A DNA stretch of 24,000 nt from an uncultured archaeon (GCA_964583985.1 CAZOYD010000023.1:18887-42886); one strand, 5' to 3'; positions 2,378 through 20,095 are shown, counted from the stretch's first letter. Notes: generated by a model from the sequence alone, not told the origin. Translations and numbers: made by a program.

Positions 2378-4348
2378 CTAAATTTCTTCAAGAATTGCAT
2401 CTATTTGAGATTCATATTGGGGTTCACGATAGTATCTAAGAGTAATAGCCTCAGAAGGACAATTAGACAAGCAAGACCCACATCCTCGACAGAGAATCTC
2501 ATCTACATCTGCACCGTCTGGTTTTAATGAAATCGCATTATAAGGACAATTTAATTCGCACAAACCACATTTTGCACATTTTTCCTTATCTACAGTAGCC
2601 CGAATCAGCATTATCCTGTATTTATCTTTTCCCATTATACGGCTTACTGATGACGCGGCAGCTCTTCCTTGGGAAATTGATTCTGAGATCGATTTAGGAC
2701 CTTGTGCTACTCCGGCTAATACAATACCAGGAATTTTTGTGTCAATTGGATTTAAACGTGAATGAAATTCCTTGAAAAAACCATCTTGACTATTTTCAAG
2801 CTTTAATAACTTTCCAATTTTCTCAACACCTTTTGCAGGCATCATTGCACAAGATAAAACCACTAAATCAAACTCGATTTCCTTTAAACCAGAACTTGAA
2901 AGAGTATTTTGCATTATCACTTTAAGATTATGGGTTTCTGGATCTTCATTAATTTTCGAAATATTCGTCCGGACGTATCTTATTCCTTCCTTCCTTGAAG
3001 CTGTATAATATTCTTCATAATCCTTCCCAGCTGCTCTAATATCCATGTATGCTACACTGATATCTGCATCGGGATAGTGTTGTTTGATTAATTTTGTATT
3101 CTTAATTGAAATCATACAACACACCCCAGCACTACAGTATGTTTGCTTATTTAAATCTCGGGATCCTACACATTGTATGAATAGTATGCGCTTTGGAGTC
3201 TTTCCATCTGATGGTCTGGCAAGATGTCCTACTGTCGGACCGTTAGGAGCAAGTAATCTTTCAAGTTTCATTTGAGTTATTACATTAGGATATACGTTAT
3301 AACCTAAATAACCCGTTTCAGGCTCATATTCATCCCAACCTGTCGCTACTATGATGGTGCCTACTTTGATTTCTATAATCTCATCTTCTTGATTAAAATC
3401 AATAGCGTTCACTTCACAAGCTTTTTCGCATAATCCACATTTGATACATCTACTCATATCAATTTGAGCTTTTGAGGGAACAGCTTGAGCAAATGACACG
3501 TAAATTGCCTTTCTAGTATTCATGCCTTCATTGAATTCATCGTATCCATAGGATGGACAAACTTCAAAACAAGCTCCACATCCATTACAATCGCTCTTTA
3601 CATACTTAGCTTTTTTTCTAATTTTCACATTAAAATTTCCAATGAATCCAGAAACATCTTCAACATTGCTGTAAGTATATAGGTTTAAATTGGGAGTTCG
3701 AGCTGCTTGAAGCATAACCGGACCGAGAATTCAAATGCTACAATCATCAGTAGGAAAAGTTCGATCGAGCATAGCCATCTTACCACCTATTGTAGGGCTT
3801 TTTTCCACGAGATGCACTTCAAATCCCTCATCGGATAAATCAATTCCAGCACTCAATCCAGAAACTCCGCCTCCAATTATTAAAGCCTTTTTTGTTATAT
3901 CAACTTCTTTTACAAGTATTTCTTCTAACAAACTGGCCCGAGCAACTCCAGATTTTATTGCATCTTCTGCGGTTTTTTGAGCCCCCACCTTATCTTGGCG
4001 ATGTACAAAACTTGCATGTTCTCGAATGTTAACAAATTCTAAAAACGAAGGATCAATATTCATAGATTCAAGAACGCTTTTGAAAACGGGTTCATGAGTT
4101 TTAGGAGTACATGATGCTACAACAAGGCGATTAGCGTTACTTTCATTCATTTTCTCTTTTATAAATTCCGCTCCTGGTTCAGTGCATAAACTGATATAAT
4201 CTGATGCATCAACCACATTAGGTAAGGTCTTGGCAAATTCAGCGAGTGCTTTAGTGTCAATGATTTCAGCAATATTAATTCCTCAAGCACAAACACTAAC
4301 AAAAATCCGTATTTCTTCAGTATTTTTTGTAATCTCTGCTTCTACCAT
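2378..4348 (-). CDS. hdrA: heterodisulfide reductase subunit A (HdrA), FAD/[4Fe-4S] flavoprotein, selenoprotein with 2 in-frame UGA (Sec) codons
   Basis: Track fragments 2378..3715 and 3731..4216, plus an unlisted N-terminus, join in one frame. The frame runs from ATG 4348..4346 through TGA 4285..4283 and TGA 3733..3731 to the TAG stop at 2380..2378, giving 656 codons. N-terminus: MVEAEITKNTEEIRIFVSVCA[U]GINIAEIID. The junction reads TFPTDDCSI[U]ILGPVMLQAA. The FAD motif is IIGGGVSGLSAG. Four CxxCxxCxxxC(P) ferredoxin motifs are present (CNGCGACFEVCP, CIKCGLCEKACE, CAKCGLCELNCP, CRGCGSCLSNCP). Confidence 0.9.
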
Positions 4349-10091: not shown

Positions 10092-10388
10092 GTGTCAAAT
10101 TCGGAGATTTCCGATTATTTAGGAATTAAACCCGCTTCCGTGTCTGGGATGCTACATAAATTAAAGGATAATGGTTTCATTATGTGGAAACCAAGAAGTT
10201 CTATAAGGTTAACTCAAAATGGAAAGAATGCTGCTACTCAGGTAATCAAAAATTATATAAAATTAAAAAAATTTTTCATAAGTATCCTTAAATTAGATGA
10301 TAAAGATCTAATCGATGCATTATGCTGTGGTATTGAGCATCACATTACACCTGAAGTGAGAAATTCCCTAGATAATTTATTAAACTAG
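10092..10388 (+). CDS. DtxR/MntR-family metal-dependent transcriptional repressor (coordinates are the minimal GTG ORF; homology extends upstream to ~10026)
   Basis: The HTH region is VSNSEISDYLGIKPASVSGMLHKLKDNGFI, with ...LTQNGKNAA... and CCGIEHHITPE matching the metal-site/dimerisation region (EHH). The in-frame upstream sequence NESHEDYLKAIYLISRHKKGGW matches the family's N-terminal helix (xEDYLxxIY). There is no ATG/GTG/TTG in frame between the TAA at 9966 and 10092. Confidence 0.8.
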   Translation: MSNSEISDYLGIKPASVSGMLHKLKDNGFIMWKPRSSIRLTQNGKNAATQVIKNYIKLKKFFISILKLDDKDLIDALCCGIEHHITPEVRNSLDNLLN

Positions 10389-10498: not shown

Positions 10499-10795
10499 GT
10501 GAATGATATAAAAGAAGTGTCAGTTCTAATTTTAATTAAAGACGATCCCGAAAATGTTTGTGCAAAGTGTTGCAAAACGACACAAGTTATTGATAGAATG
10601 ATGGAAGAAATAGCAGAATTTAAGGACAAAGTAAAGATTATATATATAGATACCAAATCAAAAGAAGATATTGATAAATTTAAAAATCTCGAAAGACCTG
10701 CAGTTATCATAAATGATAAGGTGTTTTCTGAGGGACACATACCTATTATTAAAAAACTGAGCAGAGAATTATTCAAAATATTAAATTCAACTTAA
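10499..10795 (+). CDS. small thioredoxin-fold redox protein (Thioredoxin_3 / 'redox-active disulfide protein 2'-like)
   Basis: 98 aa. It has a CAKC(C) CxxC motif near the N-terminus and, later, ERPAVIINDKVFSEGHIP, which matches the family's conserved PA-[LV]-x-[IV]-[DN]-G/D-x-x-x-x-x-G pattern. GTG start. Confidence 0.7.
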   Translation: MNDIKEVSVLILIKDDPENVCAKCCKTTQVIDRMMEEIAEFKDKVKIIYIDTKSKEDIDKFKNLERPAVIINDKVFSEGHIPIIKKLSRELFKILNST

Positions 10796-10855: not shown

Positions 10856-11767
10856 TTATTTACTTTTTTCGTCAAAATCAGTTAAATGTTTGAATCGTCC
10901 ACCTAAAATATTTACCATATCTGAGGGAACAATAATCCATGCGCCTTTTTCTTTCATTGATTCATATAAAATATTCATTGCACGTAAATTTAATGCAACT
11001 TCATCACTTTCGTAAATTTTAGCCGCATTTATGAATTTATTGGCAATTTGTTCTTCAGAACCGGCTAAAATTATCCGGGCTTGGCGTTCTCTTTCCGCTT
11101 GTGCTTGTCTGCTCATTGCATCCTGTAATGCTGTAGGAATAATAACATCTCTAAGCTCAACAGCAATTGATTTTACACCCCATTCTTCCGTGCGTTCATC
11201 AATTATTCTTTCAAGTTCATGGGATATTTCTTCTCGCCCCACAAGCATTTGACTTAATTCTGTTTTTCCAATTATGTCCCGTAAAGAAGTTTGAGCTGCC
11301 CATGAAATCGCTGTCTGATAGTCTTGTACGTGGATAGATGCTTTAAACGCATCATTTACTTGCCAAAATAATACGGCATCTACATTAACGGGTACGTTAT
11401 CTTTCGTTAAGGTCTGTTCGGCTGAAAAAGTAGTCGTTATAATTCTAATATCTAACGTGAAAGGTATTTTATATACAAATGGGAATAGCCAAAACATCCC
11501 TGGACCACGCATTTTTTTATATTTTCCCAATAATAATGTTGGAACCCGTATCCATTCGGGTAGGATATAAATTCCTGCCATTAAAAAGCCTAAGACTATT
11601 AAAATAATGACTACTGTCAAAATTAAAATATTTATCGCAACTTGGAAAAATATATTTGCGATTACCATTCCAATTAAAACAATTAATCCAACAATAAAAA
11701 GAAAGTAGCCCACTCCACGTATTGAGTTTCCTCCTACTGAATATCGATTAAATTTATCTGACATCAT
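10856..11767 (-). CDS. SPFH/band-7 (stomatin/prohibitin-like) membrane protein
   Basis: 303 aa with N-terminal TM helices followed by a canonical SPFH core (TLTKDNVPVNVDAVLFWQV, LRDIIGKTELSQML, WGVKSIAVELRDVIIP). A coiled-coil tail follows (LQDAMSRQAQAERERQARIILA). Confidence 0.9.
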   Translation of the reverse strand: MMSDKFNRYSVGGNSIRGVGYFLFIVGLIVLIGMVIANIFFQVAINILILTVVIILIVLGFLMAGIYILPEWIRVPTLLLGKYKKMRGPGMFWLFPFVYKIPFTLDIRIITTTFSAEQTLTKDNVPVNVDAVLFWQVNDAFKASIHVQDYQTAISWAAQTSLRDIIGKTELSQMLVGREEISHELERIIDERTEEWGVKSIAVELRDVIIPTALQDAMSRQAQAERERQARIILAGSEEQIANKFINAAKIYESDEVALNLRAMNILYESMKEKGAWIIVPSDMVNILGGRFKHLTDFDEKSK

Positions 11768-11793
11768 AATTGTTTAAATGATTATCATCATTG

Positions 11794-11801
11794 TATAAAA
11801 A
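11794..11801 (-). promoter_or_regulatory. TATA-box-like element upstream of the SPFH gene
   Basis: The minus strand reads TTTTTATA 27-34 nt upstream of ATG 11767. That spacing fits a leaderless or short-leader archaeal transcript. It lies in the 39-nt gap after the hgcAB-like gene. Confidence 0.3.
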
Positions 11802-11806
11802 TGTTT

Positions 11807-12907
11807 TTATAATAATTTTAAACATTTTGCTAAACATCTATTAACACAGGCATTACAATTTATGCATTTTTCGAGATTTTTTAAATCAACCTTATTATCT
11901 TTATCATTAAATACATACAAATTCCTAGGGCATACTTCTATACACACCTTACATCCAATGCATTTTTCTCTCTCAATATTTATTTGTCCGTATGGTTGTA
12001 ATGTATATTCACCAAACAGGAATTTCATTTTCTTTCCACCTTTCTTCCATGTCTTTTCACCTAATTCACTTTTATAGATGGGTGTTAAGCCATTAAAATC
12101 TTCTGCCATAATCGTAGTAATTAACAGAGAAAATGAAATATTCCATAGCAGATAGAAAAGATCAAAAATAATAAACAAATTAAATATAGTAATTAGTCCA
12201 AGAATTATCCCTTCATAAATCCATACTTTTATTTTTCCTGTTCCTATGGGAATGCTTGGTAATAGTATCATTGACCCATAAATTATTATAACAAAAATCA
12301 AAAGTGTATCTAAATAGAGTAATAGATTCAAAATTGGTAAAAAAATTGCAGTAATCCAATAGATAACTGAAATAAAAAGAATTAAGATAAAGAAATATAA
12401 TGAAGCCATTTCTGCTCTGTGAGAGATAGGAAATCTTACTATTCTCTGTGCTTCTGACTTACTAAATTTTTGTTTTATAAAAGAAGGGATATCTTTAGCA
12501 TATACGGGACCGAACTTTATATCCCACTTTGTCTTTTTTTTAATAACGATTGGATCTATTCCGGGAGCGCTTAATTGGGGTATAATTAAAGTTCTATGAG
12601 AAACAAGATCATCGATTCCGCTGGTTTTTATAATTGATAGGACAGAATCCGTATTAAAATCATCTCCGCACGCTCCACACCATACATTGATTCCTTTAGA
12701 TGGAGCAACCAATAAATAACAGTCGAGATTCTTTATTGCTTTTAAAACTCGTTTTACTGTTAAATTAAAATTGCATGTTAGTAATACAGGACTTTCATTT
12801 GTAGGGTTTCCAATTTTAATGAGGGTTGGTTCAACAGGAAAACCCGTCCATCTTAGAAAAAATCCGAGGAATAATTTTATTGACTCTTTTATACTCATTT
12901 TTCTCAT
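11807..12907 (-). CDS. HgcA-HgcB-like fusion protein: corrinoid-binding (CFeSP/HgcA-type) domain + 4 TM helices + C-terminal 2x[4Fe-4S] ferredoxin
   Basis: The N-terminal domain follows the HgcA pattern: IGNPTNESPVLLTCNFNLT...YLLVAPSKGINVWCGACGDDFNTDSV...SHRTLIIPQLSAPGI...KFGPVYAKDIPSFI...RFPISHR. Four hydrophobic helices follow (res ~165-275). The C-terminus carries CIGCKVCIEVCP and CINCNACVNRC plus an extra C (LAKC). The cap-helix codons N74-G81 are at 12688..12665. Confidence 0.8.
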   Translation of the reverse strand: MRKMSIKESIKLFLGFFLRWTGFPVEPTLIKIGNPTNESPVLLTCNFNLTVKRVLKAIKNLDCYLLVAPSKGINVWCGACGDDFNTDSVLSIIKTSGIDDLVSHRTLIIPQLSAPGIDPIVIKKKTKWDIKFGPVYAKDIPSFIKQKFSKSEAQRIVRFPISHRAEMASLYFFILILFISVIYWITAIFLPILNLLLYLDTLLIFVIIIYGSMILLPSIPIGTGKIKVWIYEGIILGLITIFNLFIIFDLFYLLWNISFSLLITTIMAEDFNGLTPIYKSELGEKTWKKGGKKMKFLFGEYTLQPYGQINIEREKCIGCKVCIEVCPRNLYVFNDKDNKVDLKNLEKCINCNACVNRCLAKCLKLL

Positions 12908-12931
12908 ATTTAATAGTAATTATTATAACCT

Positions 12932-13594
12932 TTAGGATTGTTTTTTTTTCAACCTAAATAACTTTAAAGTATCTAATAAATAATATTTTTCTTCAATCAA
13001 AGAAAAATTATTACTTTCAAGTCGTATTTCTATATTTCTCAATGATTTAGTGGTCAATTGGGACTTAAAATATGTGATAATTATCAAGGGAGTTCTTATG
13101 AAGAAATAAACAATTTTTTTCCAAATTTTTTTAGGTTTCACCTCATCAACCAAAATAAATTCTCCATTATCTTTTAATATTCTATTGATTTGCTTTAAAC
13201 AAAAATCCTGCTCTTCCCCATAAAATTCACTAAAAGATAAAATGGCGATAATTTTATCAAATGACTTATCCGAAAATTTTTCATCTAATTCTATAACTGG
13301 CATTTTAATAACTTGAATACTCTTAGTTAATCCTTCTAATTCAATTTTTTTTTTAGCAACTTCAAGCATTTTTTCCGAATTATCAATACCGGTAACTATT
13401 ACTCCTTTTTTACCACATAGAATAGCGAAGGTTCCTGTACCCATACCGATATCTAAAATTGTTTCCTTTTTATTTATTAAGTTATCAACAATATACTTGT
13501 TGATTTTAAGTAAGCGTCCTAATGTCAAATTCTTCATTCCCTTGTCGTATCTTTCTGCCTTCTTTTCCAATGCTTTCATATAAACATAAGACAT
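12932..13594 (-). CDS. class I SAM-dependent methyltransferase (with hydrophobic C-terminal segment)
   Basis: 220 aa. Motif I is ILDIGMGTGTFAI, the acidic loop is VTGIDNSEKML, and the post-I/II motifs are IIAILSF and DNGEFILVD. The segment WKKIVYFFIRTPLIIITYF is hydrophobic. The gene ends 24 nt upstream of the hgcAB-like gene on the same strand. Confidence 0.8.
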   Translation of the reverse strand: MSYVYMKALEKKAERYDKGMKNLTLGRLLKINKYIVDNLINKKETILDIGMGTGTFAILCGKKGVIVTGIDNSEKMLEVAKKKIELEGLTKSIQVIKMPVIELDEKFSDKSFDKIIAILSFSEFYGEEQDFCLKQINRILKDNGEFILVDEVKPKKIWKKIVYFFIRTPLIIITYFKSQLTTKSLRNIEIRLESNNFSLIEEKYYLLDTLKLFRLKKKQS

Positions 13595-13703
13595 TTAAGA
13601 ATCAACTTTTTTATATAAATTACTTCTTTTTCTATATTATCTAAAATACTAATTTATTTATTTGCAGAATACTCTTAGGAAAATTAATAGTTCAATCTCA
13701 TCT

Positions 13704-14009
13704 TTAATTTTTTTTGATTTCATTCTCTTTTTCTTTTTTTAATTCCTTTAACTTCTGCTTCAACGCTTTTTTTTTATTCTTGGTTAAAATCGAAATCTCT
13801 TTATTAAATATTTTTAAAATATATTTTAATTCAGAGATTCTCCCGTTTAAATCTCTTTTTTCCTTCTTAATAGAACCCATATCTCGATAATCTTGTTCAT
13901 ATTTAGAATAGATTTCATTGAGAACTGTATCGAATTCGATTGAAATTTTTTTTTGAATTTCAGCTTCCTTTTCCTTATATTTTTCTTCGATTTCATTCAA
14001 ATTTGTCAT
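13704..14009 (-). CDS. small Lys/Glu-rich coiled-coil protein
   Basis: 101 aa, with heptad-like K/E/I/L composition throughout. No family recognised. Confidence 0.5.
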   Translation of the reverse strand: MTNLNEIEEKYKEKEAEIQKKISIEFDTVLNEIYSKYEQDYRDMGSIKKEKRDLNGRISELKYILKIFNKEISILTKNKKKALKQKLKELKKEKENEIKKN

Positions 14010-14176: not shown

Positions 14177-15835
14177 CTACAACCACTTTATTACGTAAAG
14201 TGGCCACTTTTTTAAAACACCTTTAGGGTATTTCCCACTTCTGACCTTATCTAGCATTTCTGACCGAATTTTCAAGAAATCCACTGGATCTTCTTCAATC
14301 AATTGAATTCCTATCCCACCATCTAAAATACACTTTCTAAAATTATCATTCTTGACACAATTCAACAAAATTTCTTTAAAATTCTTTCGATTGATACATT
14401 CTGCTCCATAATTTGAATTCAATATTATCTTCCAGCTTTCATCTATACCCTTTTTGGGAGATACTAATAAAAGCAGATCAATATTTGATTTACTTTCAAT
14501 CCCTAAGCATTTTATTAACATGCGAGGATCTAAAATTTCAAAGGTATTAAAATTAAAGTAGTCACCGGCATAAACCGTATATCCTTTTTTTAAATGTAAA
14601 TTTTCAGAGATTTTTATTGGATATTTTAATTGAAATTCTGAACGCAAAATTTTACCGTTAATTTGAGGGAGAGCTTGTTGATTTACTAATTGGATAACAT
14701 CCCCAATATCTAAATTGATAAATACTTTAGTATCATCAAATCGAGATATTAGAAGCTTTCCAAATTTACTGTTACTATCGGAAATTAATTGTTTTTTTCC
14801 TTTATATTCTAGTACTGGTAAAGTTAAAGGAAATACGGTAAGAATATCTTTTTGTGAAATACCCTTAAGATCCTTATTTATTGTTGCTGCAAATGGTCCT
14901 GTCTCAGATGATACATATAAATTAGTAAATTTTTCTTCTCCTTTTTCCCATTTCATAAATTGACGGATTAAATCCCAATCTCTTGAAGATAATGAACTTA
15001 TACTAAAAATGAGAACTGCTTTTGATAATTTATTAGAAAGCAACTCCTGTATTTCTTTTGCGGCAGTTGTAACACCCTTTTTTTTAACTTTTAAGAGAAG
15101 TTTTTCTAACATCGGGTCAGGTTCAGGATCAACATCATTGAGGGATTTTTGTAACCCTATTTGGAATTTTTCTATATCTGCCCAACCAAGGATTGTAATT
15201 GCTGGAGCGGAAATTACAGAGATATCATTTAATGATAATATTTTTGCGATGATGTTGAGATTTTTTGAAAATTTATATTCGAAAAGAGTATAATTCGAAG
15301 GTTTCATTATTGCTAACATTAATCTCTGGGAGAATTCGGAAGAATATAGTGAGATAAAATTGGTATTTTCTGTATTATTTAATCCATCGATATCAAGCCT
15401 TGAAGGGATAAAAATTATTGCCGAGGATTTAGAATCCAATCCGCTCGATTCAAAAATTGCTTGCATTCCTGGTGCCCAATATAGTTTTACATTCTTTTTT
15501 GACATATGTAGCCATTTTAGCGAATTTATATCATTATTTGTAGTGCCTGAACTATGACATACAATTAAGGGTTCGGAACCATGAAAATTTGCGAGATAAT
15601 CATTAAGATCGATAGAAATTTTTTTAGAATCAGTTTTTTCTCTTTCTATTCTTTCAAAAATATCGGTTACTATAGCTAATCCTGAATTTTTTAAAATATA
15701 ATCAATATAATCTTCTTTTGATGAGATATCTAACCATTTTTTCCAATTGGTAGGTTGAATTTCAGAAAATATTTTATTAAAAAGCAATTGAACCTTGGGA
15801 TCAAAATCGTTTGATATCAATCTATTATCTTTCAC
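14177..15835 (-). CDS. divergent adenylate-forming enzyme (ANL/PaaK/F390-synthetase/GH3-like superfamily)
   Basis: 552 aa. LIVCHSSGTTNND resembles the [ST]SG[ST]TG phosphate-binding motif. LYVSSETGPFA resembles YGxTE. NLDIGDVIQL resembles the TGD motif. Motif order and spacing fit a two-domain acyl-adenylate enzyme. The substrate is unknown. Confidence 0.55.
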   Translation of the reverse strand: MKDNRLISNDFDPKVQLLFNKIFSEIQPTNWKKWLDISSKEDYIDYILKNSGLAIVTDIFERIEREKTDSKKISIDLNDYLANFHGSEPLIVCHSSGTTNNDINSLKWLHMSKKNVKLYWAPGMQAIFESSGLDSKSSAIIFIPSRLDIDGLNNTENTNFISLYSSEFSQRLMLAIMKPSNYTLFEYKFSKNLNIIAKILSLNDISVISAPAITILGWADIEKFQIGLQKSLNDVDPEPDPMLEKLLLKVKKKGVTTAAKEIQELLSNKLSKAVLIFSISSLSSRDWDLIRQFMKWEKGEEKFTNLYVSSETGPFAATINKDLKGISQKDILTVFPLTLPVLEYKGKKQLISDSNSKFGKLLISRFDDTKVFINLDIGDVIQLVNQQALPQINGKILRSEFQLKYPIKISENLHLKKGYTVYAGDYFNFNTFEILDPRMLIKCLGIESKSNIDLLLLVSPKKGIDESWKIILNSNYGAECINRKNFKEILLNCVKNDNFRKCILDGGIGIQLIEEDPVDFLKIRSEMLDKVRSGKYPKGVLKKWPLYVIKWL

Positions 15836-18915: not shown

Positions 18916-19698
18916 TTAAAGTTTCATTTGTAATAGGTTCTGTAACCTTCTCTCTAAAGAAGGATGACGAGAGAAAAACGTATATCTAAATTTATTTTGC
19001 CTTTTTGTCGAATTATTTAAAATCCAGAAACTTTTCGAAACATCAATTACTTTAAACTTCGATTCAGAATGCTCCATAAAACATTTAACCATCTTTACTA
19101 AAGCTGATGCTAAAGAGAGAGGATCTTTCGTATACTGAACACTTTTAAGATCGGCTTGAATTTCTCTCGTACGAGAAAAATAGGAATCTAACAATACACC
19201 AAAAGGAATCCATAGGTATCGGCTTATTATACATGAAGCTTTAATCCAAATATCTTTATTATAAATATGAAAAAGTTCATGAAAAAGAACAGCAATAACT
19301 TCTTTCTTTTCTAAATTCTCAAATAAGCCAACTGATAAAACGATAGTATATTTCTTTGGATGATTGAATAAAGTAAACGCATTAGGCAACCCATCATCAA
19401 GCACTCCAATTTCTACTCTTTTTTTTATCTTTAAAGCTTTATTCCATTCTAAAATATAATCATAAAGTTCGGGACATAAATCATAAGTAAGAATGGTAAT
19501 TCCATTTCTTCTAATTATTGATTTGCCACCAATTATATACCAGAGAATACCAAGAAGGAAGAGAGTTATATAAAAGACAATCATAAAAAAAGCAACTTCA
19601 ATTTCAGAAAAAATAATTGGAAATATAATTGTAATTAGAACATATGTAATAGTAATTAAGTATAATAATAAATGTCTACTCTTCATCAGTTTTACCAT
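18916..19698 (-). CDS. BlaR1-like M56/M48 zinc metalloprotease (membrane, no extracellular sensor domain)
   Basis: 260 aa with N-terminal TM helices and the HExxH motif in LFHELFHIYNKD. It overlaps the 3' end of the BlaI-like gene. An alternative start at ATG 19686 gives an 11-nt overlap. Confidence 0.8.
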   Translation of the reverse strand: MVKLMKSRHLLLYLITITYVLITIIFPIIFSEIEVAFFMIVFYITLFLLGILWYIIGGKSIIRRNGITILTYDLCPELYDYILEWNKALKIKKRVEIGVLDDGLPNAFTLFNHPKKYTIVLSVGLFENLEKKEVIAVLFHELFHIYNKDIWIKASCIISRYLWIPFGVLLDSYFSRTREIQADLKSVQYTKDPLSLASALVKMVKCFMEHSESKFKVIDVSKSFWILNNSTKRQNKFRYTFFSRHPSLERRLQNLLQMKL

Positions 19699-20095
19699 TC
19701 TTAGATTGCTTTATTTGTTTCAATTCTTCTAACAAATTATTTAATTCTTCCTTATTATAGTTTTTAGAGATTTCTTGAATTATTTTCATTGAAGCTTTAT
19801 TCCCATAAGATTTTACAATTTGACTCGCTAAGTTTTCTGAAACTTTCTTTTCAAAACGACTTTTTATCTCTTTTACCTTATAAATATAAAATAAACCACC
19901 CTTACCCTTATTAACTTCCCGAGATAAAAAACCCTTATTGAATAATCGATTCAATGTCGTGCTAATAGTAGTTAGAGCAATTTCTCTCTCTTTATTAAGA
20001 GTTTCATATATTTTTCTTACTGTTGATGACTTATTTGACCACATAATTTGCATAATTGCAAGTTCTAATGGTCCTAGTTCAGATTTTACTGCCAT
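19676..20095 (-). CDS. BlaI/MecI/CopY-family winged-helix transcriptional repressor
   Basis: 139 aa. LGPLELAIMQIMWSNKSSTVRKIYETLNKEREIALTTISTTLNRLFNKGFLSRE matches the Penicillinase_R pattern. The C-terminus is a coiled-coil. Confidence 0.85.
   Translation of the reverse strand: MAVKSELGPLELAIMQIMWSNKSSTVRKIYETLNKEREIALTTISTTLNRLFNKGFLSREVNKGKGGLFYIYKVKEIKSRFEKKVSENLASQIVKSYGNKASMKIIQEISKNYNKEELNNLLEELKQIKQSKNGKTDEE

Follow-up and report, generated by a model that had tools for sequence, protein, structure and literature searches.

What the HgcAB superfamily natively does has long been a puzzle, in that mercury is methylated without apparent benefit to the cell. Purified canonical HgcAB takes a methyl group from S-adenosylmethionine (SAM) and passes it on through CH3-Co(III), with cysteine-thiolate ligation of the cobalt and HgcB acting as the electron conduit (PMC11588087). 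Podar et al. (2015) described a family of fused HgcAB proteins, which Lin et al. (2023; PMC10083202) reported from Loki- and Thorarchaeota; Capo et al. (2022) treated it with caution in surveys, noting that the carrier isolates tested do not methylate mercury. The present analysis concerns a locus of this kind in a stretch of 24,000 nucleotides from an uncultured archaeon (GCA_964583985.1, CAZOYD010000023.1:18887-42886), referred to throughout as the window. Here, a gene for a class-I SAM-dependent methyltransferase, cpaM, immediately precedes a gene for an HgcAB-like protein that joins a corrinoid domain, a membrane domain and a ferredoxin. Comparison across genomes and metagenomes showed that these two proteins are very likely to be physical and functional partners.

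The initial annotation had called the locus an uncharacterised module. This is accurate in the biochemical sense, but the pairing is already curated in NCBIfam, where the two proteins are modelled as 'corrinoid protein-associated methyltransferase CpaM' (NF043040, of the model type 'hypoth_equivalog', or hypothetical equivalog) and 'HgcAB-like fusion protein' (NF043039). The same names are given in GenBank to relatives at approximately 80% identity, and the pair in the window is an ordinary example. This fused sister family occurs widely in anoxic sediments and among Asgard archaea, one carrier being Promethearchaeum syntrophicum MK-D1, which is in culture. A search of the literature for CpaM and for functional work on fused HgcAB returned Podar 2015, Capo 2022 and Lin 2023 and nothing further; no paper was found that names CpaM or discusses a partner methyltransferase, and the preprint of Haft and Gwadz does not mention CpaM.

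The window has a G+C content of approximately 28% and its closest relatives are Promethearchaeota (Lokiarchaeota-type Asgard) genomes, the nearest relative locus being L001. Three open reading frames (ORFs) on the minus strand were recovered exactly where they had first been placed, at 12932..13594 (220 residues), 11807..12907 (366 residues) and 10856..11767 (303 residues), with intergenic gaps of 24 nt between the first and second and 39 nt between the second and third. Their domain content was borne out by Pfam and NCBIfam: the first encodes a class-I SAM methyltransferase, the second a corrinoid domain of the CdhD type with a 2x[4Fe-4S] ferredoxin behind it, and the third an SPFH/Band-7 protein.

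The association of the first two genes was examined in 33 Asgard genome loci, three distant archaeal relatives and 80 loci added by a metagenome scan with a diverse alignment. The cpaM gene lay upstream on the same strand in 33 of the 33 Asgard genome loci. The same arrangement was found in the three distant relatives (approximately 45% identity, one of them a Bathyarchaeia genome), where start and stop overlapped by 4 nt in two, and the metagenome loci extended the comparison to corrinoid proteins only about 26% identical. In total, 111 HgcAB-like loci were obtained from Asgard archaea, Bathyarchaeia and diverse bacteria. Ten of these had less than 300 nt of upstream sequence and could not be scored; in all 101 that could, CpaM was encoded upstream on the same strand, either as a separate ORF (88 loci, with a median gap of 20 nt) or within the same ORF, as a fusion (13 loci). 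Reverse look-ups that started from CpaM proteins found the HgcAB-like gene directly downstream. Conservation of this adjacency across genomes was the check proposed with the initial annotation, and the result upheld it. Tight packing of the two genes is far beyond what chance would produce, because the same adjacency recurs at every testable locus.

Looser linkage was seen only in two loci, L027 (1709..2632, a Promethearchaeum sp. genome) and L042 (211..1140, a metagenome), where a gene of approximately 308 codons, similar to nitrilase/CN-hydrolase genes as judged by eye from its sequence, lay between cpaM and the HgcAB-like gene on the same strand.

The curated cutoffs of the hidden Markov models separated HgcAB-like proteins cleanly from canonical HgcA. 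Upstream methyltransferases from nine distant loci and from MK-D1 (L028) all passed the CpaM cutoff (10/10, 230-299 bits), and all of eight distant fusion proteins passed the HgcAB-like cutoff while failing that for HgcA. Conversely, two canonical HgcA proteins (L106 and L113) passed the HgcA cutoff at 441-462 bits and failed the HgcAB-like cutoff. The scan also returned ten canonical hgcA loci, in all of which the cap helix read NVWCAAGKG and HgcB was encoded separately, with 90-115 residues; a Cys-Cys pair stood at or next to the C-terminus of HgcB in nine. CpaM was found in none of these ten, eight of which have at least 700 nt of upstream sequence.

Natural fusions provide a second line of evidence. 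Such fusions proved common in bacteria: a homology search with one of them listed 120 clusters, nearly all of which were a protein of approximately 590 residues, full-length or partial, with the order methyltransferase, corrinoid domain, transmembrane region and ferredoxin; these came from Deltaproteobacteria/Desulfobacteraceae, Calditrichaeota, Marinimicrobia, Ignavibacteria-type bacteria and Bacteroidota. One such fusion, P0241, passed both the CpaM and the HgcAB-like NCBIfam cutoffs, and its predicted structure (predicted local distance difference test (pLDDT) 81.9, predicted template modelling score (pTM) 0.81) contained four transmembrane helices. When the model of the triple fusion was compared with the PDB by fold search, only generic methyltransferases and a published computed HgcAB model (9a0b) were matched, and no solved structure spanned both the methyltransferase and the corrinoid domain.

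Three other bacterial fusions (L110, 5128..6843; L119, 1435..3165; L114, 1723..3305) combined CpaM with an HgcA-like corrinoid and membrane part, with no ferredoxin motifs in the ORF. The first of these exceeded the CpaM cutoff and fell slightly under the HgcAB-like cutoff (259.5 vs 285 bits). This suggests a further architectural variant, in which the ferredoxin is separate or absent.

Finally, the two proteins have diverged in step. Distance matrices for CpaM and the HgcAB-like protein, calculated from 65 complete pairs, were correlated at r = 0.95 overall, 0.91 outside Asgard archaea and 0.86 within them (Mantel p approximately 0.001). It is the conserved linkage, the natural fusions and this correlation that make a partnership very likely. 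They also bear on the simplest alternative, that a housekeeping methyltransferase lies by chance beside a corrinoid gene and that the adjacency has no functional meaning. Class-I methyltransferases are abundant and the genome is gene-dense, and this is all that can be said for such a view; perfect linkage at testable loci in two domains of life, fusion into single polypeptides, correlated divergence and the lack of CpaM beside canonical hgcA leave its probability close to nil, and the comparative data effectively refute it.

The HgcAB-like protein of the window (11807..12907, minus strand) matched NF043039 with 371.5 bits against a cutoff of 285, from position 2 to 349 of 350. Its 366 residues comprise a corrinoid domain at the N-terminus, a membrane part of four helices and, at the C-terminus, a ferredoxin of the 2x[4Fe-4S] type. 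The corrinoid (B12)-binding domain (residues 23-152, 12452..12841) matched Pfam PF03599 (CdhD) at residues 25-142 and is homologous to the C-terminal domain of the large subunit of corrinoid iron-sulfur protein (CFeSP). This resemblance was limited in extent: the protein fell under the CFeSP large-subunit (CdhE/AcsC) cutoff (NF003195, 86.9 vs 306 bits), with only the C-terminal B12 domain aligned (model positions 324-448), and its sequence matches in the PDB were confined to the B12 domain of CFeSP (2h9a, 4c1n and 4djd, over residues 23-148). Within this domain, the cap-helix motif GINVWCGACG (residues 72-81, 12665..12694) places Cys77 in alignment with the cobalt-ligand cysteine of HgcA. In the alignment of HgcAB-like fusion proteins, G72 to C77 were invariant and C80 nearly so. 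The second cysteine, which gives the motif WC-x-x-C and has no counterpart in canonical HgcA, occurred in 43 of the 111 HgcAB-like proteins, including every Asgard locus with a readable motif; it marks a clade of Asgard archaea and Bathyarchaeia, most bacterial members being without it.

The membrane domain (12086..12427) has four predicted transmembrane helices, at approximately residues 161-186, 188-218, 224-247 and 251-274, as judged from hydropathy and from mapping onto helices 392-499 of the AlphaFold 2 (AF2) model of the fusion. It is followed by an HgcB-like ferredoxin domain (residues 309-365, 11813..11983) with two CX2CX2CX3C motifs (C316/319/322/326 and C348/351/354/358) and an additional C362. 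The eight Fe-S cysteines were all invariant in the same alignment. This domain matched Pfam Fer4 families, and the HgcB model NF040864 at 43 bits, below its cutoff of 99. As for the start of the protein, most homologues begin at the position of Met4, and for this reason the true start of the gene is probably the ATG at 12898 (MSIK...), which would extend the spacer behind cpaM to 33 nt.

These features allow the possibility of a cryptic mercury methylase to be assessed, that is, of a divergent HgcAB that methylates Hg(II) under conditions other than those tried so far. The domain plan is that of HgcA plus HgcB, the GINVWC cap helix retains the ligand cysteine and, as Podar et al. pointed out, the absence of methylmercury in Pyrococcus furiosus, the classic carrier in culture, is no proof that the protein cannot do the chemistry. 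Against this, the protein failed the curated HgcA cutoff (NF040863, 167.5 vs 275 bits); NVWCGACG is not among the six accepted HgcA cap-helix motifs (PMC10087281); no Cys-Cys pair was found at the C-terminus, where the chain ends ...RCLAKCLKLL; the N-terminal region, the site of the CU/CC motif that Haft and Gwadz described in HgcA, has no cysteine; and no cultured carrier of fused HgcAB has yet made methylmercury when tested. Mercury methylation is accordingly considered a very improbable function for this protein.

CpaM (12932..13594, minus strand; 220 residues) was identified as a class-I (Rossmann) SAM-dependent methyltransferase by NCBIfam, by Pfam and from an AF2 model. Its score on NF043040 was 242.1 bits (cutoff 180), with model positions 1-215 of 216 aligned, and it also matched Pfam Methyltransf_11/25/31; the model was of a Rossmann fold (pLDDT 87.7, pTM 0.85). 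SAM-binding motif I is represented by TILDIGMGTGT (residues 45-55, 13430..13462). When 35 CpaM domains were aligned, bacterial fusions included, L47, D48, G50, G52, T53 and G54 were invariant, as was the acidic D71 downstream; motif I and an acidic residue after strand 2 are thus both in place, and the class-I SAM-binding site is intact. The same alignment revealed an invariant, family-specific motif at the N-terminus, MK.LE...YD.G. The nearest solved folds were yeast Coq5/UbiE (4obw, TM-score 0.78), CmoA and PmtA, the best sequence match outside CpaM was TIGR01934 (66 bits, far under the cutoff of 158), and weak family matches included ArsM-like models.

A conserved hydrophobic helix of CpaM, IWKKIVYFFIRTPLIIITYFKS (residues 157-178, 13061..13126), was modelled by AF2 at lower confidence (pLDDT 56-79). 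P169 was invariant among the 35 domains and F164, L170 and T174 were nearly so; the motif R.PL...TY of this helix also occurs in the methyltransferase-corrinoid fusions. The hydrophobic C-terminal segment that had been suggested to dock CpaM to the membrane partner, WKKIVYFFIRTPLIIITYF, belongs to this helix. The segment is present (residues 158-176), but by hydropathy it is not a membrane anchor, and a transmembrane role was rejected, no window of 19 residues reaching a Kyte-Doolittle mean of 1.6. The helix is predicted in the usual lid position of class-I methyltransferases, where it probably serves as a lid or for docking and faces either the partner or the membrane.

With both proteins described, a mechanism can be proposed. 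On balance, and by a narrow preference, we regard cpaM and the HgcAB-like gene as encoding a membrane-bound, SAM-driven corrinoid methyltransferase system. First, the fused ferredoxin domain would pass low-potential electrons to the cobalamin of the N-terminal domain, giving Co(I). CpaM would then dock on the corrinoid domain and move the SAM methyl group to Co(I), and Cys77 in the cap helix would stabilise the resulting CH3-Co(III) through its thiolate. Lastly, the methyl group would be delivered at the membrane face to an acceptor, which is probably not Hg(II). The direction in which the methyl group flows, the part of CpaM as loader and all that concerns the acceptor are what we infer. A relay from SAM through CH3-Co(III) to an acceptor was already proposed in the initial annotation and seems the best reading; it fits the 2024 work on canonical HgcAB (PMC11588087), a direct precedent in which SAM methylated the cobalamin.

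A more specific claim would be that CpaM is the first class-I Rossmann subunit of the MT1 type to load a corrinoid protein with methyl, in a complete three-part machine of SAM binder, corrinoid carrier and ferredoxin, whose native acceptor at the membrane would be something other than mercury. This is plausible, yet falls short of probable. Soft metalloids, chalcogenides and thiols are among the candidate acceptors.

Several points weigh against a corrinoid-loading CpaM. Its nearest solved folds are those of small-molecule C-, N- and O-methyltransferases (Coq5/UbiE, CmoA, PmtA), and we know of no class-I methyltransferase that methylates a protein-bound corrinoid. Accessory genes differ between lineages, with none in the window, and gene context points to no acceptor. 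Moreover, canonical HgcAB was methylated by SAM in vitro without a separate methyltransferase (PMC11588087) and, since it takes the SAM methyl group unaided, a separate loader may be chemically unnecessary.

The fold and the unaided reaction in vitro also speak for the main rival explanation, in which the two proteins act in sequence on a shared substrate. CpaM would methylate a small molecule or lipid from SAM, and the HgcAB-like protein would act on the same compound before or after it, for example through a second methylation loaded directly from SAM, as in canonical HgcAB, or a corrinoid-dependent reduction. The weak matches of CpaM to small-molecule families, ArsM-like models among them, fit such a pathway; consecutive enzymes of a pathway likewise fuse and co-evolve, and methyltransferases of the PEMT/ICMT/MddA superfamily that recur nearby suggest a pathway with multiple methylations. 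Nevertheless, linkage at 101 of 101 loci and repeated fusion directly N-terminal to the corrinoid domain are more typical of subunits of one enzyme, the conserved, family-specific helix of CpaM looks like a fixed element for protein docking, and gene context yields no candidate small-molecule substrate. Action in sequence is considered unlikely, although it deserves more weight than any other alternative.

Reductive chemistry is the weaker rival. According to this explanation, the HgcAB-like protein is mainly a corrinoid/Fe-S reductase, for example a halomethane or other reductive dehalogenase, and not a methyl donor, and CpaM is an accessory that might, for instance, make or consume a methylated or halogenated intermediate. 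Cobalamin and Fe-S clusters are indeed the cofactor set of reductive dehalogenases, and a 2026 preprint reports that heterologous canonical HgcAB dechlorinates CCl4 besides methylating mercury (10.64898/2026.04.26.720869). That preprint is not peer-reviewed, however, and concerns canonical HgcAB with no mention of the fused family; a reductase gives no reason for an obligatory and often fused SAM-binding domain with invariant SAM motifs; and no dehalogenase-associated genes were seen in the loci examined. We consider it improbable.

The extent of the transcription unit was evaluated from the spacers and from gene order. The 24-nt spacer between cpaM and the HgcAB-like gene (12908..12931, minus strand) contains no TATA-like octamer, and the corresponding spacer in relatives, with its median of 20 nt, is often replaced by the 4-nt overlap. 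A TATA-like octamer, TTTATATA (13612..13619, minus strand), lies 25 nt upstream of the cpaM ATG and is a candidate promoter for a cpaM-hgcAB-like transcript that would have little or no leader. Just past the stop codon of the fusion gene, the stretch AAACATTTTTATA (11794..11806, minus strand) holds a T5 run and a second TATA-like element, TTTTTATA, which was confirmed at 11794..11801, as first annotated, and lies 34 nt upstream of the SPFH ATG. The T5 run is a possible archaeal termination signal, so that this stretch may form the downstream boundary of the unit. The octamer pattern was chosen by the analyst and any promoter reading is correspondingly inferential; by this pattern, there were approximately 1.8 TATA-like octamers per kb per strand in the window, or a chance of about 2.6% for a given 16-nt zone, and such an octamer stood 20-38 nt upstream of the start in no more than two of the 19 genes checked, those for CpaM and SPFH. 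A scan for sigma-70 promoters and intrinsic terminators returned 19 sites against 21.6 expected and was uninformative for an archaeon.

Membership of the SPFH gene in the unit had been doubted at the outset, and rightly so. An SPFH gene was found nearby in only 2 of 34 Asgard loci, the window and L001, and gene order differs in the latter, where the thioredoxin gene lies between the SPFH homologue and the pair. For these reasons, and on account of its own TATA-like element, SPFH was rejected as a third component and would be an unrelated neighbour with its own promoter. From the lack of conservation of SPFH and the placement of the TATA-like elements, it follows that the unit comprises cpaM and the HgcAB-like gene and is probably bicistronic.

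Two further neighbours that had been pointed out on the other strand, a DtxR/MntR-like ORF (10092..10388) and a thioredoxin-fold ORF (10499..10795), are both present; neither is conserved with the pair, and both were rejected as conserved partners. The regulator recurred near the pair in L001 alone, and the thioredoxin-fold protein was near it in 4 of 34 Asgard loci. The DtxR/MntR-like ORF is of 98 residues and its match begins at position 24 of the 60-position model of the N-terminal DNA-binding domain; this is either a short form or the result of a mis-set start, and the homologue in L001 matched over the same length. The thioredoxin-fold protein has an unusual C-A-K-C-C (CxxCC) motif that is kept in all four copies. 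The other three are at L001 7133..7429, L013 7492..7764 and L029 5466..5798; the gene was seen in these four Asgard loci only, on the strand opposite the HgcAB-like gene, and its product matched the MTH895/ArsE and SaoT thioredoxin-like families weakly.

A universal third gene was sought near the pair across the loci and none was found. What recurred were neighbours limited to particular lineages: PEMT/ICMT/MddA-like membrane methyltransferases, F420H2_quin_red/DDN-like and PNPOx-like proteins, a small membrane protein, ABC ATPases and, in bacterial loci, TetR regulators. None of the accessory genes of other loci was present when they were looked for within the 24-kb window.

Membrane methyltransferases of the PEMT/ICMT/MddA superfamily occurred near the pair in 20 loci, two of which were canonical hgcAB loci; examples are L039 6190..6798, L043 3..509, L048 2..505, L052 3427..3780, L108 7278..7913 and L118 7361..8020. 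Their best NCBIfam match was to the methanethiol S-methyltransferase MddA, far below the cutoff. In L043, L048, L052 and L091 the gene was directly upstream of cpaM; in the two canonical loci it lay downstream of hgcA, by 300-450 nt. In eight Asgard loci (L002, L004, L005, L007, L008, L009, L012 and L025), a protein of approximately 180 residues related to F420H2_quin_red/DDN (deazaflavin-dependent nitroreductase) was encoded 41-233 nt downstream of the HgcAB-like gene on the same strand (e.g., L005 6718..7281), in the place that the SPFH gene takes in the window. A PF04075 gene was also seen near the pair in the Bathyarchaeia locus L035. The F420H2_quin_red/DDN-like protein may be a lineage-specific third component.

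Elsewhere in the window, several features were recorded that concern other genes. On the minus strand, two ORFs in the same frame, 3731..4216 (a FAD/NAD-binding N-terminus) and 2378..3715 (polyferredoxin-like, with four Fer4 stretches), are parted only by a TGA at 3731..3733. Its context, DDCSI-TGA-ILGPVML, resembles the Cys/Sec site of HdrA-type flavoproteins, and 2378..4216 is probably a single selenocysteine-containing HdrA-like gene that was split by ORF calling. An ORF of 552 residues (14177..15835, minus strand) matched no Pfam or NCBIfam family; L001, the closest relative, has a homologue with 73% identity, placed between the gene for histidyl-tRNA synthetase and the cpaM region. Just upstream of cpaM, a Lys/Glu-rich ORF of 101 residues (13704..14009, minus strand) had only a sub-threshold Pfam match of the V-SNARE type, and its homologues lay a few kb from the pair in L001, L005, L019, L020, L023 and L032, in varying positions and on varying strands. 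Lastly, a BlaI/penicillinase-repressor-like gene (19676..20095, minus strand) overlaps the start of a gene for an M48/BlaR1-type membrane peptidase (18916..19698, minus strand); these are a bacterial-type sensor-repressor pair in an Asgard genome.

For the window itself the result is an ordinary one, which adds one more annotated member to a family. For the superfamily it has wider meaning. The constant linkage or fusion to a SAM methyltransferase supports SAM as the source of methyl groups superfamily-wide, independently of the 2024 biochemistry on canonical HgcAB, and because this linkage is so strict, the native chemistry of the clade that is sister to the mercury methylase can be approached directly by experiment. 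The natural single-chain fusions of methyltransferase, corrinoid domain and ferredoxin are a ready experimental system for SAM-to-cobalt transfer and for acceptor screens. In environmental surveys, CpaM can serve as a simple marker by which non-methylating HgcAB-like genes are told apart from true hgcAB. Were CpaM indeed the loader in this sister clade, the acceptor could reveal what the HgcAB superfamily evolved for, and CpaM could show where SAM is bound by canonical HgcAB, in which no SAM domain can be recognised.

Several known systems invite comparison. CFeSP (AcsC/AcsD, CdhE/CdhD) has a homologous B12-binding domain and, together with the methyltransferase MeTr of the Wood-Ljungdahl pathway, follows the same three-part logic, in which a methyltransferase loads a corrinoid protein that needs an Fe-S centre for reductive activation. 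There, however, the loader is a TIM-barrel enzyme that uses methyltetrahydrofolate (methyl-H4folate), rather than a Rossmann SAM methyltransferase, and CFeSP is soluble, has no cysteine in a cap helix and donates its methyl group to the Ni centre of acetyl-CoA synthase (ACS). In the reactivation domain of methionine synthase and in class B radical-SAM/TsrM-type methylases, SAM methylates Co(I) and the methylcobalamin then methylates a substrate. This SAM-to-Co(I) chemistry, which is discussed in PMC11588087, matches the second step as proposed here. The activation domain of MetH and the radical-SAM enzymes nevertheless have unrelated SAM folds and Rossmann-type B12 domains and are soluble, whereas CpaM is a class-I Rossmann protein with a CFeSP-type membrane protein as its partner. 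The quinone C-methyltransferases UbiE/MenG/Coq5 are the best match to CpaM both in structure and, outside CpaM itself, in sequence; they differ in that CpaM has its own N-terminal and helix motifs and in that its gene context is a corrinoid protein, not quinone biosynthesis.

Canonical HgcA and HgcB come closer to the partner protein. They share with it a homologous corrinoid domain with GINVWC and the ligand cysteine, as well as a membrane domain and a partner ferredoxin of the 2x[4Fe-4S] type. They are two polypeptides, whereas the window has one; the cap helix of the window protein reads NVWCGACG, outside the accepted HgcA motifs, and not NVWCAAGK; and the window protein has neither of two motifs that are tied to mercury handling, the Cys-Cys pair at the C-terminus of HgcB and, in the N-terminal part of HgcA, CU/CC. 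Canonical hgcAB loci are also without CpaM, while in the HgcAB-like family it is an obligatory partner. With the CpaM/HgcAB-like family of NCBIfam, finally, the window pair has in common the architecture, the cap-helix cysteine, the eight Fe-S cysteines, the gene order and the tight spacing. Nothing essential differs, and its Asgard/Bathyarchaeia clade adds the WC-x-x-C motif.

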